Positions 8,036 through 23,909 of a stretch of 33,504 nt of DNA are shown here, piece by piece. Each line of letters starts with the position of its first letter. Position 1 is the first letter of the stretch. A program made the position numbers and the translations under genes. The DNA comes from Anaerolineae bacterium. Its GTDB lineage: Bacteria; Chloroflexota; Anaerolineae; JADYZS01. Below the pieces are notes generated by a model, which was given only the letters and a program-made list of their open reading frames with translations, was not told the origin of the DNA and did no database searches. The stretch is taken from contig JADYZS010000047.1 of NCBI GenBank assembly GCA_020853075.1, positions 1 to 33,504 on the forward strand, in the 5' to 3' direction.

Positions 8036-8086
8036 TGCAGACCGAAGGTGATATAGATACTAACCCAGCCAGACTGAAAAGACCCG

Positions 8087-8219
8087 GTCATCGGTTAGAA
8101 ACCGACGGCAACCGGCTAGGAAGCCCGCAGAGCGGGCTTAACGAACGTGCAGCCGTACTCGCCCCGCGGAGCGGGACTTTGCGGGCCTCCCACCGCCGTC
8201 GGATTTTATCCGATGGCGG
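8087..8219. repeat. Modular hairpin cassette (type-1 hairpin / type-2 AGA-loop hairpins / inverted type-1 hairpin), copy 1
   Basis: Hairpins at 8087-8109 (CATCGGTT-AGA-AACCGACGG), 8121-8139 (AAGCCCGC-AGA-GCGGGCTT), 8163-8175 (CCCGC-GGA-GCGGG) and 8193-8219 (CCGCCGTCGGAT-TTT-ATCCGATGGCGG). The same module set recurs at 22415-22499. Confidence 0.6.
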
Positions 8220-8246
8220 CCTGTTTCTAGACTTCTCTGACAGTCT

Positions 8247-9071
8247 CTACGGCCCCACCTTCGTCGGGATCTGGTAACGGTTGATAAGATAGTCCACATC
8301 TACCGGCTCTGCCGGAAGGGGGCGCTCCATACCTGGCGCGCGCAGGACTACGTCCATGATACCGCCGGCATCCTTCACGTATTTCAATACCAGGGCGTCT
8401 TGCGCGCTCACCGCCAGCAGCAGCGCGTCCGGAGCGCGCGTATCACCACCTGTGGGGGTTCTGCCGGCCACGATAGCCGAGATGGTTACGTTCTGGAGCA
8501 GATTGAAGGTCGCTTGCTCCTTCTCGCGTATCACCACCGTTCCGCTGGTTGTGCCTCCTGCTTCGCTAGGTGTAGTAACCTGGGTGCCGCGATTGGCGGG
8601 GAACTCCAGCGAAAAGAGGAGGTCCACGTGGTCGCCGGGCTTCAGAACACCCACGCGGCTCATCAGGTCCTGAGCGGGGATCGCCATCAGCACTTCGTCT
8701 GCCGCGACAACCAGAGCCAACCGTCCATCGGCAGAGGTGACGTTAGGATCCAAGAGGCGTTGGGCCAGGACAACCTCGCCTGGATAGAGGTCCACCAGCG
8801 TCAGGCGGCCGGCGGCCTGTTCCACCTCGCGGATAGCCCCTTCGGGCACGGAATCTACCGGGATGTCCTTCAGTTGCAGGTCACCGGCGCTCAGAAGTGA
8901 TCGCACCGCGAGCGCCCGCGCCGCGACTACCACTTTTACCCTCGGTTGCACAACCTCCTGACCTGTGCGCTGGGCCGTGGCCCTTGTCAGGCTGATGAAG
9001 GCGACGAAGCCCGCCAAAACCGCAACAACCAAGCCGGCCGTTAGCCACAGGAGACCTCGCAAACGTCCCAT
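8247..9071 (-). CDS. cpaB: Flp pilus assembly protein CpaB/RcpC
   Basis: 274-aa ORF with an N-terminal TM anchor (LLWLTAGLVVAVLAGFVAFI) and a SAF-like segment (VKVVVAARALAVRSLLSAGDLQLKDIP). AGGAGGG lies 5 nt upstream of the ATG. Confidence 0.8.
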   Translation of the reverse strand: MGRLRGLLWLTAGLVVAVLAGFVAFISLTRATAQRTGQEVVQPRVKVVVAARALAVRSLLSAGDLQLKDIPVDSVPEGAIREVEQAAGRLTLVDLYPGEVVLAQRLLDPNVTSADGRLALVVAADEVLMAIPAQDLMSRVGVLKPGDHVDLLFSLEFPANRGTQVTTPSEAGGTTSGTVVIREKEQATFNLLQNVTISAIVAGRTPTGGDTRAPDALLLAVSAQDALVLKYVKDAGGIMDVVLRAPGMERPLPAEPVDVDYLINRYQIPTKVGP

Positions 9072-12130: not shown

Positions 12131-12197
12131 ATAAGCGGTCAGCGGATAGGGCGCGGATTAGCGGATATCGCCGCCGCGCGAAGGCTATCCGCTGACC
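12131..12197. repeat. TCAGCGGAT-bounded palindromic repeat element, copy 1
   Basis: TCAGCGGAT (12139-12147), CGCGGAT (12152-12158), TAGCGGAT (12159-12166) and inverted ATCCGCTGA (12187-12195). It shares GAAGGCTATCCGCT with the copy at 16565-16580. Confidence 0.6.
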
Positions 12198-13903: not shown

Positions 13904-13972
13904 GGGTCAGCGGATGCCTGCGGCGTAGCGGATTAGCGGATAGTCCCTCGTAGAGAGGCGTCATCCGCTGAC
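13904..13972. repeat. TCAGCGGAT-bounded palindromic repeat element, copy 2
   Basis: TCAGCGGAT (13907-13915), TAGCGGAT x2 (13926-13941) and inverted ATCCGCTGA (13963-13971). Positions 13904-13938 are 35/35 identical to the reverse complement of 20253-20287. Confidence 0.7.
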
Positions 13973-16520: not shown

Positions 16521-16610
16521 GGGTCAGCGGATGGGTAGAGGATAAGCGGATACCGTCTGCCCACAAGAAGGCTATCCGCTAATCGGCCACGCCGAAGCCA
16601 TCCGCTGATC
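16521..16610. repeat. TCAGCGGAT-bounded palindromic repeat element, copy 3
   Basis: TCAGCGGAT (16524-16532), AAGCGGAT (16544-16551), inverted ATCCGCTAA (16574-16582) and ATCCGCTGA (16600-16608). Confidence 0.6.
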
Positions 16611-20020: not shown

Positions 20021-20287
20021 GGTCAGCGGAAAGAGATACACCACGGAGACACGCAGAATAGATTCAGCGGATAGGTAGCGGATTAGCGGATGGTCCCTAC
20101 GGGCTGCTTTTCGTCTCTCCCCCGTTCGTTTTACGGGGGAGGGTTGGCCGCGAAGCGTTCCGTCGCTTGCACCTGTGCTGGGCTGCGCCCGGCCAGGGCG
20201 CAGGGTCGACTAATCGGCGCAAGCCAACAGGCACGCGGGTGTGGGGGCCTTTCGCTAATCCGCTACGCCGCAGGCATCCGCTGACCC
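20021..20287. repeat. MITE-like composite element bounded by inverted TCAGCGGAT/TAGCGGATTAGCG ends
   Basis: The left end at 20064-20091 is TCAGCGGAT-AGG-TAGCGGATTAGCGGAT. The right end at 20253-20287 is the reverse complement of GGGTCAGCGGATGCCTGCGGCGTAGCGGATTAGCG. Internal 8-bp hairpins lie at 20117-20141 and 20183-20203. GCTTGCACC...GGCGCAAGCC arms are shared with 14307-14330. It also has an upstream TCAGCGGAA (20023-20031) and CCACGGAGACAC (20041-20052). Confidence 0.6.
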
Positions 20288-21585: not shown

Positions 21586-22380
21586 CTACTTATCCTGGAA
21601 AATCGGCTGCCGCTTCTGCAAGAAAGCGGTCACGCCTTCGCGCATGTCGTGAGTCTGCGTCAACTCCAGGAAGCGATCCACTTCGTACAGGAGGCCGTCG
21701 GCCAGGGAAAGCCGCCCGGAGTGGTCCACCGCGGCCAACGCCGCGGCAATCGCCACCGCGCTCTTGCTGGCGATCTTCTTCGCCAGTCCCTTCGCCTCTT
21801 TGATGAGCGCGTCGCCCGGCACTACCTTGTTGACCAGCCCCAGCCGGTATGCCTCTTGCGCGTTGATCAGATCCCCCGTCAGAATCAATTCCAGAGCCTT
21901 GCCCTTGCCCAGAATTCGCGGCAGCCGCTGCGTGCCACCCCAGCCGGGGATGATGCCCAGGTTGATCTCGGTCTGGCCCAGGCGCGCCCGGTCGGAGGCG
22001 AGGCGGATGTGGCAGGCCATCGCCAATTCCAGGCCGCCACCGATGCACGCGCCGTTGATGGCCGCGATGACCGGCTTCCTGGCCGACTCCACCTTGCTAA
22101 AGACGGCCTGCCCCTTGAGGAGCATACGGCGGGCATCACCCTCATTTGCGCCGTCGCCCAGGCGGGCGATCTCGTTGATGTCTGCACCGGCGACGAAGAC
22201 GTTGGGCCCTGCGCCGGTGATAATCAAGACCTTCACATCAGGATTCGCCATCGCTTCATCCAGCGCGCCGTCCAGTTCCATCATGGTGGCTGCATTGAAG
22301 GCGTTGACAGGCGGATGGTCAATGGTGAGGATGGCGATGCGCTCCTCTATCGTCATTTTGACAAACTGGCGTTCGGACAT
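21586..22380 (-). CDS. Enoyl-CoA hydratase (crotonase family)
   Basis: 264-aa ORF with AAINGACIGGGLELAMACHIRLAS and the crotonase fold pattern. Confidence 0.9.
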   Translation of the reverse strand: MSERQFVKMTIEERIAILTIDHPPVNAFNAATMMELDGALDEAMANPDVKVLIITGAGPNVFVAGADINEIARLGDGANEGDARRMLLKGQAVFSKVESARKPVIAAINGACIGGGLELAMACHIRLASDRARLGQTEINLGIIPGWGGTQRLPRILGKGKALELILTGDLINAQEAYRLGLVNKVVPGDALIKEAKGLAKKIASKSAVAIAAALAAVDHSGRLSLADGLLYEVDRFLELTQTHDMREGVTAFLQKRQPIFQDK

Positions 22381-22414
22381 TTTCTACTCCTTTGAGTCCT
22401 AATCGGTGCAGCCT

Positions 22415-22499
22415 GCCATCGGATAAATCCGACGGCTACATTCGCAAAACCCGCAGAGCGGGTTTCTTGATCGATAGCCGTCGGTTTCCAACCGATGGC
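22415..22499. repeat. Modular hairpin cassette, copy 2
   Basis: Hairpins at 22415-22436 (GCCATCGGAT-AA-ATCCGACGGC), 22447-22465 (AAACCCGC-AGA-GCGGGTTT) and 22477-22499 (GCCGTCGGTT-TCC-AACCGATGGC). The architecture matches 8087-8219. Confidence 0.6.
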
Positions 22500-22511
22500 C
22501 GGCACTCTGAA

Positions 22512-23744
22512 TCATCCGGTATATTCGTGGAAGCCTTTGCCTACCTTACGCCCCAGGTGTCCTGCGCGCACCTTCAGTTTCAGCAAGCGTGCGGGCCGGA
22601 AGCGTTCGCCACCCCAGGCTGCGCTCTGGTACTCCTCTAACCCGGCCAGCACGGTATCCAGGCCCAGGTGGTCGGCCAGGGCCAGGGGGCCCATGCGCTC
22701 GCCGTGCCAGGTCATGCCTGTGCCGGCGACCATCGCCATGTCAATGTCGGCGATGCCCGCGATGCGCTCCTGCCGGCAGAGGGCTGCCTCGTTGATGAGG
22801 GGATAGACCAGCCGCTCTACGCAGAAGGGTGTATTGGTGCGCACACCGTTTGTATGCTGCATCTCGGCGATCATCGCTTTCACCGGCTCGTCCGACTCGT
22901 TGCCGTAGCCGTAGAAGCCTGCACCGGCCTTCTCACCCAGGCGATTGGCGGCAATCAACTTGTGGAAGAGCCCCGCCGGAGCCATGCGCTCGCCATATTC
23001 ACTATACAGGTAGAGGCCGACGTCGCCGCAGACGTCAATGCCTAGCATATCCATCAGCGTAAAGGGGCCCATAGGCATCCCGAATTCGGTCAGCGCGCGG
23101 TCTATCGTCTGCGCATCGGCGGCACCCTCCTGTAAGCAGAAGGTCGCCTCATTAAGATAGGGCATGAGGAGCCGGTTGACGAGGAAGCCCGGACACTCCT
23201 GCACCACGACGGGGATTTTGCGCAGCGACTCGGCGAAGGAGACCACGTCGTCCACCGTCTCCTGTGCAGTATCCAGGCCGGGGATGACCTCCATCAATTT
23301 CATGACGTGCGCCGGGTTGAAGAAGTGCATCCCGATCATCTTCGCCGGGCGCTTGGTGGCCGCGCCCATCTCGCTGATGGAGAGGGCCGAGGTATTGCTG
23401 GCGAAGATCGTTGTCTCCGGGCAGACGGCGTCCAATTCGGCGAAGATGCGCTTTTTCAGATCCATCCGCTCCGGCACGGCTTCAATGACCAGGTCGGCAT
23501 CGCTGAGGCTGTCGTAGGCCAACGTCGGCTCAATGAGGGCCAACCTGTTCTCCATTTCCCCGGCGCTCATCTTGCCTTTGTCCACCCGCCGCTGATAGAT
23601 ATCGCGGATGCGGGTCAGGCCGCGCTCCAGCATCGCCTGATCCACGTCTTTCAGGACGACGGGGAGGCCGGAGTAACTGATGACCTGGGCGATCTCTGCG
23701 CCCATCGTTCCGGCGCCGATGACGCCTGCCTTGAAAATGTACAT
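22512..23744 (-). CDS. 3-hydroxyacyl-CoA dehydrogenase (NAD-binding, extended C-terminal domain)
   Basis: 410-aa ORF with the N-terminal Rossmann motif VIGAGTMGAEIAQV and a HADH C-domain (FLVNRLLMPYLNEA). AGGAGG lies 5 nt upstream of the ATG. Confidence 0.9.
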   Translation of the reverse strand: MYIFKAGVIGAGTMGAEIAQVISYSGLPVVLKDVDQAMLERGLTRIRDIYQRRVDKGKMSAGEMENRLALIEPTLAYDSLSDADLVIEAVPERMDLKKRIFAELDAVCPETTIFASNTSALSISEMGAATKRPAKMIGMHFFNPAHVMKLMEVIPGLDTAQETVDDVVSFAESLRKIPVVVQECPGFLVNRLLMPYLNEATFCLQEGAADAQTIDRALTEFGMPMGPFTLMDMLGIDVCGDVGLYLYSEYGERMAPAGLFHKLIAANRLGEKAGAGFYGYGNESDEPVKAMIAEMQHTNGVRTNTPFCVERLVYPLINEAALCRQERIAGIADIDMAMVAGTGMTWHGERMGPLALADHLGLDTVLAGLEEYQSAAWGGERFRPARLLKLKVRAGHLGRKVGKGFHEYTG

Positions 23745-23767: not shown

Positions 23768-23909
23768 AACCACGGAGACACAGAGGACACGGAGGAAGTG
23801 GTTTACCACAAAGACACAAAGGCACAAAGTTTATGATTATCTTTGTGTCTTGGTGCCTTGGTGGTGAGGCCTTGTTTCTTTTCTCTGTGCTCTCCGTGTC
23901 TCCGTGGTT
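23768..23909. repeat. 142-bp nested palindrome built from tandem short motifs
   Basis: The outer arms AACCACGGAGACAC (23768-23781) and GTGTCTCCGTGGTT (23896-23909) form a 14-bp perfect pair. The left half carries CACRGAG x3 then CACAAAG x3. The right half carries CTTKGTG x3 then CTCYGTG x3. It fills most of the 168-nt thiolase/HADH gap. Confidence 0.65.

Follow-up and report, generated by a model that had tools for sequence, protein, structure and literature searches.

The cassette that occurs twice in the window (the whole 33,504-nt stretch analysed, contig C47) represents a variant form of a known repeat type, and the enzyme subclass with which it is associated has not previously been linked to such repeats. 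We consider it very probable that the cassette is a non-autonomous palindromic REP-doublet repeat, similar to REPINs, BIMEs and MITEs, that consists of the ends of a Y1 transposase locus without the gene, with the Y1 enzyme as its likely mobiliser. The small palindromic repeat is, in other words, probably mobile DNA. The second copy with its compensatory base pair is then ordinary repeat biology, a REP doublet and no new RNA; what exceeds the routine is the link to Y1 subclass 1.2 and the flipping of the inner loop.

Copy 2 sits in the 22381-22511 gap between two minus-strand genes, inside a co-directional operon (Table 1). The three-hairpin layout and the central stems of both copies are exactly as the original prediction described them, with AAGCCCGC/GCGGGCTT in copy 1 versus AAACCCGC/GCGGGTTT in copy 2. 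When these patterns are searched in the 4.18-Mb assembly, exact matches number 159 for the outer hairpin and 92 for the inner hairpin, compared with 0 for reversed control patterns, an abundance far above chance. Copy 1 alone carries a nested 43-nt insert and outer flanking repeats, both of which copy 2 lacks; the mini-insert unit occurs at 8 loci, 3 of which are inside cassettes.

The relative orientation of the two copies changes how their differences are read. In a repeat search, 8084-8148 and 22438-22502 form an inverted match, the first sign that the copies are oppositely oriented, and the left end is a T-type hairpin in copy 1 and an A-type hairpin in copy 2. The apical pairs, which had been described as swapped between copies, appear so because of this opposite orientation; what they reflect is a fixed difference between the T-type end (GGTT-loop-AACC) and the A-type end (GGAT-loop-ATCC) that is found in 85/85 doublets of this genome. 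For the same reason, the AGA loop is identical in both copies, as had been claimed, on the plus strand but is inverted in element polarity, where one copy has AGA and the other TCT.

Table 1. Positions of the two cassette copies, their component hairpins and the genes neighbouring copy 2 in the window.
Feature	Coordinates	Strand	Remarks
Copy 1, class A element	8070..8249	+	doublet 8088-8216; outer flanking inverted repeats 8070-8087 and 8217-8249
Copy 1 T-type outer hairpin, TCATCGGTTAGAAACCGACGG	8088..8108	+	
Copy 1 inner hairpin, AAGCCCGC-AGA-GCGGGCTT	8121..8139	.	
Copy 1 nested 43-nt mini-insert	8153..8195	+	at foot of A-type hairpin; own CCCCGC-GGA-GCGGG hairpin
Copy 1 A-type outer hairpin, CCGTCGGATTTTATCCGATGG	8196..8216	+	
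Enoyl-CoA hydratase gene, downstream neighbour of copy 2	21586..22380	-	start 35 nt from element; AAGGAG ribosome-binding site intact
Copy 2, 85-bp core-only REP doublet	22415..22499	-	T-type to A-type polarity on minus strand
Copy 2 A-type outer REP hairpin, GCCATCGGAT-AA-ATCCGACGGC	22415..22436	+	A.C mismatch on + strand, G.T on - strand; in full GCCATCGGATAAATCCGACGGC
Copy 2 inner (central) hairpin, AAACCCGC-AGA-GCGGGTTT	22447..22465	.	junction of two inverted modules
Copy 2 T-type outer REP hairpin, GCCGTCGGTT-TCC-AACCGATGGC	22477..22499	+	G.T wobble on + strand; in full GCCGTCGGTTTCCAACCGATGGC
3-hydroxyacyl-CoA dehydrogenase gene, upstream neighbour of copy 2	22512..23744	-	stop codon 13 nt from element

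The assembly to which the window belongs is a fragmented MAG of 532 contigs (61.6% G+C, 84% complete), and throughout it the cassette forms a large repeat family. With one mismatch allowed per arm, outer hairpins are found at 283 sites in the whole assembly, and a tolerant search yields about 123 inner hairpins. The asymmetric position of the outer stem is occupied by G.T at 124 of the 283 sites, by A.C at 113, by G-C at 36 and by A-T at 8. We resolve 85 doublets, all of which have the order A.C then G.T, split 45 to 40 between the two orientations. The single relative arrangement of T-type and A-type hairpins in all doublets indicates that the element has a fixed polarity. Doublet spacers are mostly 41-47 nt with a peak at 46 nt, the longer ones being the result of small nested inserts. 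In total, the gene-less unit has expanded to at least 85 doublets and approximately 100 single hairpins.

The distribution and folding of the family are those of REPs and REPINs (BIMEs): high-copy, mostly extragenic imperfect palindromes that form inverted pairs with a short spacer and can fold as one long hairpin. A crude gene finder places 70/85 doublets outside predicted genes, with 87.5% of the genome being coding, and the intergenic doublets fall into co-directional (44), divergent (9) and convergent (7) gaps in approximately the background mix of the genome. The two arms of a doublet can form a mean of 17.2 Watson-Crick pairs out of 20, and by pair counting, the local hairpins and the long-hairpin conformation have about equal support. 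At the 5' foot of the hairpin, the bases preceding CCGTCGG vary (CAG, TAG, TTG, CTG). A conserved GTAG (GT[AG]G) tag is not found at this foot, where GTAG occurs in a minority of copies, copy 2 among them.

A search of the whole assembly with the Pfam Y1_Tnp model returns a single gene (C65:16889-17305, 139 aa, 91 bits), the copy number of which is not certain because the assembly is a fragmented MAG. The gene is surrounded by unique flanks on an 18.8-kb contig, and its product contains the motifs DHLH and YWQ as well as a tyrosine within QYIQNQKRHH, such that both the HUH motif and the tyrosine are intact; this tyrosine aligns with the catalytic Y127 of IS608 TnpA ('QYIxNQ'). Three tandem cassettes, repeating every 100 nt, directly precede the gene; the A-type hairpin of the third is decayed. 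The gene is directly followed by a half cassette, in which an A-type hairpin comes after an inner-type hairpin (AACCTGC-GTA-GCAGGTT). The most frequent 16-mer of the 5' flank, CGTCGGATTTTATCCG, has 64 copies and is also the most frequent 16-mer of the genome, such abundance being the criterion for REP association used by Bertels et al. (PMC5581495). The locus thereby has the makeup of a REPtron, with one full-length Y1 gene as counted in a fragmented MAG, REPs on both sides and an abundant flanking 16-mer. The 283 sites and this one Y1 gene, flanked by the same modules, bear out the expectation that the cassette belongs to a REP/MITE-like family and that a RAYT-type transposase is encoded elsewhere in the genome.

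Across the assembly, no gene other than the Y1 gene is bracketed by T-type and A-type hairpins. The rimM gene on contig C221 was considered as a second case and rejected, as it merely lies between two independent insertions. Because the single Y1 gene on C65 is flanked by the same modules and no other gene is bracketed in this way, the Y1 protein is the likely mobilising enzyme; and because the cassette has the layout of the Y1 locus minus the gene, it resembles a REPIN, BIME or MITE. Integron attC sites and CRISPR repeats were also dropped as identities, as the units lack regular spacing next to cassettes or spacers and flank a Y1 gene.

Comparison with related genomes separates the presence of the gene from the spread of the repeat. 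The Y1 orthologues of genomes G036 (76% identity) and G020 (67%) have tandem three-hairpin cassettes directly upstream, and the exact inner hairpins of these genomes (2 and 6, respectively) are confined to these upstream cassettes. Overall, in 12 genomes other than the source genome that have an orthologous gene, hairpins are few (0-12) and mostly beside the gene; the presence of the gene alone therefore does not cause dispersal. Ten orthologue-bearing genomes besides G036 and G020 contain the inner hairpin 0-12 times and the identical outer hairpin sequence 2-11 times, partly on other contigs, which makes the source genome an outlier with a large expansion. Genome G001, which belongs to the same genus and is 94% complete, contains neither a Y1 gene of the C65 type nor outer or inner hairpins, a pattern of presence and absence consistent with a mobile element. 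At the orthologous dehydrogenase-hydratase site of G001, the cassette is absent: the gap is 41 nt versus 131 nt here, a difference close to the 85-bp length of the element, in intergenic DNA that is too diverged in G001 to place the element boundaries. The flanks of copy 1 map to different G001 contigs. A copy that lies in frame within hypF is inserted in a variable linker, where it adds a net 66 nt.

A wider scan for Y1 homologues, using one genome per species, returned 80 loci. Approximately 25 of these are Chloroflexota loci with 67-80% identity, which share a layout in which the gene is enclosed by two inner hairpins, one ahead of the ribosome-binding site and one after the stop, with an outer hairpin beyond each, about 10 nt away on the upstream side and about 12 nt away on the downstream side. 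The inner loops of these loci are TNC upstream and GNA downstream, which indicates that the two gene flanks are inverted copies of one module. Adjacent gene-less cassettes in Chloroflexota MAGs correspond to two such modules fused at one inner hairpin. More distant homologues are found in Cyanobacteria and Bacteroidota. Among the 58 testable homologous loci, the Y---Q--HH motif is present in 54, and inverted two-hairpin modules flank the gene in 33 (z>5), including loci from Cyanobacteria, Bacteroidota, Armatimonadota, Acidobacteriota and Firmicutes.

The affiliation of the enzyme bears on whether the cassettes are instead MITEs or 'PATEs' of an ordinary active IS200/IS605 insertion sequence, with a selfish Y1 gene whose full copies are collapsed or missing. 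The Y1 protein does score as an IS200/IS605 transposase (PF01797, 91 bits; NF033573, 81 bits versus a cut-off of 55) and falls below the cut-off of the RAYT/TnpA-REP class 2 model (NF047646, 25.2 bits versus 80), its tyrosine motif being YIQNQKRHH and not YIxxNP. Among solved structures, the IS608 and ISDra2 transposases are its nearest relatives, E. coli TnpA-REP is absent among its PDB matches, and an assembly that is fragmented and 84% complete could have lost full copies. However, the defining traits of a mobile IS200/IS605 unit, namely multiple near-identical gene copies, often with tnpB, were not found in this fragmented assembly, which limits the test: the one Y1 gene recovered has unique flanks on its 18.8-kb contig, and no TnpB-type domain was detected, with the same limit on the search. 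The flanks of the gene are, moreover, inverted repeats of each other, and to our knowledge, IS200/IS605 elements have not been described as having inverted-repeat ends. The orthologues also share neighbouring genes in several related genomes. By motif signature (Y---Q--HH, WQ, DHxH, 139 aa, single copy), the protein is a TnpA-Y1 of subclass 1.2, and YIQNQKRHH fits this subclass, characterised by its authors as low-copy and without insertion-sequence properties (PMC6006769). We therefore regard derivation from an ordinary insertion sequence as unlikely, though it is the most serious competitor of the REP-doublet reading.

The extremities of the doublets raise a different question on which enzyme has moved them. 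Core-only doublets (40/85), including copy 2, end at the hairpin feet without outer repeats, whereas the class A doublets (26/85), including copy 1, have outer inverted repeats CTGTCTGARAAGTC and the class B doublets (19/85) are units of about 200 bp with ends TAGGGCCCTGTCAAAGTC. Classes A and B together comprise the 45/85 doublets that bear additional terminal inverted repeats on the outside, and these doublets may have been dispersed in the form of larger units, possibly via a different enzyme; their close within-class similarity (mean identity 84-86%, up to 100%) suggests recent bursts of such units. Taken further, the whole family could have been spread by a non-Y1 enzyme, such as a DDE transposase for which the outer repeats of classes A and B are the substrate, with the Y1 locus as a frequent landing site. 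We find this scarcely credible, as the 40 core-only doublets lack outer repeats altogether and the outer repeats are always accompanied by hairpins, with no empty versions of the class A or B repeats in the assembly. The modules that flank the Y1 gene in 33/58 loci across several phyla also mean that chance landing is no explanation.

The hairpin structure of the element is clearly conserved across genomes through compensatory changes. We aligned the upstream module of 18 genomes, which contains two hairpins with 18 pairs, and find that 91% of the alignment cells at these positions are paired. Both sides change in 8/18 pairs (27 cells), compared with 3.3 in shuffled alignments (0/500 shuffles reach the observed value), and the covariation score is 0.262, compared with 0.099 in shuffles (again 0/500) and at most 0.052 for slid partners. 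The covariation count favours conserved pairing, with slid controls near zero. The inner pair singled out in the original prediction is A-U in 10 and G-C in 8 of the 18 genomes and is unpaired in none. Conversely, the A.C position is non-paired in 16/18 genomes, which indicates that the mismatch itself is conserved.

Within the source genome, the same inner position is G-C in 68, A-T in 45, G.T in 7 and A.C in 3 of the 123 inner hairpins, while a second pair of this stem is C-G in 103, T-A in 10 and T.G in 5. A Watson-Crick pair is kept at the variable position in 113/123 copies. We built a copy tree without the columns of the inner hairpin; on this tree, the G-C/A-T state needs 6 changes, versus 20.3 with shuffled labels, and within the tree set, the class A copies are all A-T and the class B copies all G-C. 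The state is therefore mostly inherited by subfamily. The G-C to A-T double change noted between the two window copies does preserve pairing, but it is mostly a subfamily marker and did not arise independently. A single template-switch step can also produce a double change where a DNA palindrome is perfect (quasi-palindrome mutagenesis), and thus double changes alone are no proof of selection on RNA structure. The claim that pairing is constrained holds on the evidence of the 18-genome alignment and the 123 inner hairpins; selection at the RNA level is not proven by the double changes.

The inner loop behaves differently from the stem. In element polarity, the loops include TTT (16), AAA (16), AGA (10) and TCT (9), and the number of orientation changes on the copy tree equals that with shuffled labels (10 versus 9.5 and 6 versus 6.0), which indicates that the 3-nt loop inverts much faster than copies diverge. 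In one tandem array, the successive loops are TCT, TCT and AGA. The inner loop thus flips freely with respect to the element around it.

These observations bear on the view that the cassette is mainly a structured RNA of operon transcripts, acting as a terminator, attenuator, RNase target or mRNA stabiliser. Copy 2 lies inside a co-directional operon and folds into one long and very stable hairpin (RNA -60.2 kcal/mol, z = -6.7; DNA -34 kcal/mol, z = -6.9), its inner hairpin is followed by UUUUG on the transcribed strand, and in E. coli, an influence of REP elements on the stability of mRNA is known (cited in PMC6006769). Yet the structured-RNA search suggested earlier yields no Rfam match at gathering score in the whole window, and at a permissive E-value, 22350-22550 gives only chance-level matches far below gathering scores (best E-value 0.012). 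The inner hairpin fails a simple terminator scan, and its loop orientation is random. Copies 1 and 2 lie in opposite orientations relative to the transcription of their operons, the doublets in co-directional gaps are only weakly biased genome-wide (29:15), and copies also occur in divergent and convergent gaps and inside reading frames. The modules are also found on both sides of a transposase gene. An effect at the RNA level would be a by-product of insertion and not the cause of the family. A primarily RNA-level role is accordingly very improbable; the overall pattern fits mobile DNA, an RNA gene is unlikely here, and local mRNA effects are possible.

Returning to the REP-doublet reading, we picture an element in which two different REP hairpins, T-type and A-type, are inverted and joined through a GC-rich inner hairpin. 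By analogy with IS608/ISDra2 TnpA and E. coli TnpA-REP, the Y1 enzyme would recognise these hairpins in single-stranded DNA, cut at the hairpin feet and then rejoin the ends. The gene-less unit would in this way have multiplied, mostly between genes, including at the dehydrogenase-hydratase junction. Movement of the cassette by the Y1 enzyme, the strand and cleavage sites involved, and any effect on the operon mRNA are what we infer from sequence. More tentatively, and with somewhat less than even confidence, we suggest that orphan subclass 1.2 could be a widespread REPtron-type system with its own end architecture, an outer mismatch hairpin plus a GC-rich inner hairpin inverted across the gene, that ranges from Chloroflexota to Cyanobacteria, Bacteroidota and Armatimonadota. 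The present genome could then be a rare gene-less bloom, and the flip/flop of the loop could mark processing of the hairpin by the enzyme or by replication.

For annotation, identification as a REP doublet helps with the dehydrogenase-hydratase operon and many similar junctions in the genome. For research on single-strand DNA transposases, the element is of moderate interest: a Y1 subclass of 2018, reported without repeats or insertion-sequence properties, is bracketed by conserved two-hairpin modules in many phyla and gains a testable substrate in the form of defined hairpins with a conserved A.C/G.T asymmetry. The genomes that have kept the element beside the gene offer a natural comparison with the one in which it has spread. 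The fast inversion of the 3-nt loop versus the slowly changing stem is also a clear small case of palindrome-driven mutation and a reminder that 'compensatory' double changes in DNA palindromes need not mean selection on RNA.

When compared to known systems, the family is closest in overall form to the REPIN/BIME plus RAYT 'REPtrons' (Bertels & Rainey 2011, PMC3116915; Ton-Hoang et al. 2012; Quentin et al. 2018, PMC6006769). As in REPtrons, the short hairpins are high-copy and mostly between genes, form an inverted two-hairpin unit able to fold into one long hairpin, flank a single Y1 gene with tandem clusters beside it, include the commonest 16-mer of the genome in this flank, and are missing from a close relative without the gene. 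Unlike in REPtrons, the enzyme is not a class 2 TnpA-REP, as it fails NF047646 and has Y---Q--HH instead of YIxxNP; there is no conserved GTAG, with only YAG/G preceding the hairpin; every doublet combines two hairpin variants as a heterodimer; each module includes a conserved GC-rich inner hairpin; and the hairpin sequence is common to genomes of different families rather than species-specific. The CGTC- and GTAG-tagged REP superfamilies (Di Nocera, De Gregorio & Rocco 2013, PMC3733652) are similar in having stems of 8-10 bp with loops of 3-5 nt, a predominance of head-to-head dimers, heterodimers with structured spacers, some copies in frame in genes and some families in longer palindromic flanks. 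The CGTC of our repeat, however, lies inside the stem as part of CCGTCGG, which is paired to CCGATGG, rather than forming an unpaired tag, and whereas no dedicated transposase was found for CGTC repeats in that study, the present family has one.

The IS200/IS605 elements IS608 and ISDra2 and their miniature derivatives share with the present system the same kind of catalytic core (Pfam Y1_Tnp, NCBIfam IS200 model), imperfect subterminal hairpins in which a mismatch is conserved, and gene-less derivatives made of the two ends. They differ in that the gene here is single-copy and without TnpB, the left end is an inverted repeat of the right end, and the gene-less unit far outnumbers the gene. 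The enzyme itself finds its closest counterpart in subclass 1.2, for which we found, in the literature searched, nothing later than its description by Quentin, Siguier, Chandler & Fichant (2018, PMC6006769). In their Table 1, the subclass has DH[IV]H, WQ and YIKNQKEHH with a median length of 148 aa; the authors list it as low-copy and 'REP: no', and report that it lacks typical terminal hairpins and occurs mainly in Cyanobacteria and Bacteroidetes. The Y1 protein studied here, with DHLH, WQ and YIQNQKRHH in 139 aa and a low copy number, agrees with this description in its motifs, length and rarity. It departs from it in that its homologues' genes are flanked by inverted two-hairpin modules (33/58 loci), its Chloroflexota hosts are outside the stated taxonomic range, and in one genome the hairpins are dispersed in hundreds of copies.

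In the source assembly (G000, 4.18 Mb), cassettes lie in frame within long reading frames at three sites. One of these falls within HypF, in the region of the C-terminal Kae1-like domain (confirmed with Pfam), where it amounts to a net gain of 22 codons relative to the same-genus genome G001, while the other two are found within large membrane-protein ORFs.

Cassettes also occur in altered forms. Single hairpins that retain both outer flanks of class A, one of the two doublet classes with outer inverted repeats, look as if recombination had deleted the region between the hairpins, and many of the 102 singletons (lone outer hairpins), only 8 of which are near contig ends, may be such deletion-type forms. 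Other cassettes carry insertions. One insertion is a 43-nt mini-unit that carries a CCCCGC-GGA-GCGGG hairpin of its own and sits precisely at the foot of the A-type hairpin, with CCGT repeated on both sides. This unit is also the core of a further palindromic family flanked by CCCTC...GAGGG runs (contigs C161, C220, C305 and C448). A 37-nt unit, CCTCGCTTGCACCTAGTCGGCGCAAGCCGACAGGC, recurs as an insertion in apical loops, both those of T-type hairpins and those of inner hairpins (18 loci). In several cassettes the place of the inner hairpin is taken by a 28-nt perfect palindrome, GTAGGGGCGAGGCATGCCTCGCCCCTAC (17 loci). In these last two cases one small element is nested within another.

Two further repeat families are present in the window. 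The first, built on an AGCGGAT heptamer and unrelated to the hairpin cassettes, occupies approximately 159 loci genome-wide; because a repeat of this kind also lies just 3′ of the Y1 (IS200-like transposase) orthologue in G020, such repeats are common to Anaerolineae-like genomes. The second consists of CACGGAG/CACAGAG units that form long palindromes, at approximately 34 loci genome-wide.

Gene-less cassettes are additionally arranged in tandem arrays, with 3 copies at a 100-nt period in G000, approximately 16 in L040 and approximately 10 in L035 (loci carrying Y1 gene homologues), and the position of these arrays is always 5′ of the Y1 gene. Directly 3′ of this gene in G000 is an N6/N4 DNA methylase gene (163 bits), and at three other loci (L021, L022 and L030) the orthologous Y1 genes have neighbours in common, the upstream gene ending in ...TLQVKVG and the downstream gene starting with MPRKKQ. 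Together, the methylase and the common neighbours suggest that the position of the Y1 gene is conserved, near a restriction-modification-like locus.

Coordinates of cassette variants, associated repeats and the methylase gene
Feature	Window	G000 contigs	Other loci	Pfam
In-frame cassettes		C181:4724-4811; C238:7613-7700; C238:9797-9884		
Flank-retaining single hairpins		C347:8423-8500; C510; C330; C387		
43-nt mini-unit	8153-8195	C6:2476; C29:11085		
37-nt unit / 28-nt palindrome		C23, C30, C105, C184, C252, C263, C332, C438 and others		
AGCGGAT-heptamer repeats	12137-12197; 13904-13972; 16521-16610; 20021-20287			
CACGGAG/CACAGAG palindromes	23768-23909; 20034-20057			
Tandem cassette arrays		C65:16594-16880; C104:3-284	L040 270-1925; L035 1085-1955	
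N6/N4 DNA methylase gene		C65:17399-18751 (= L001 1993-3345)		PF01555
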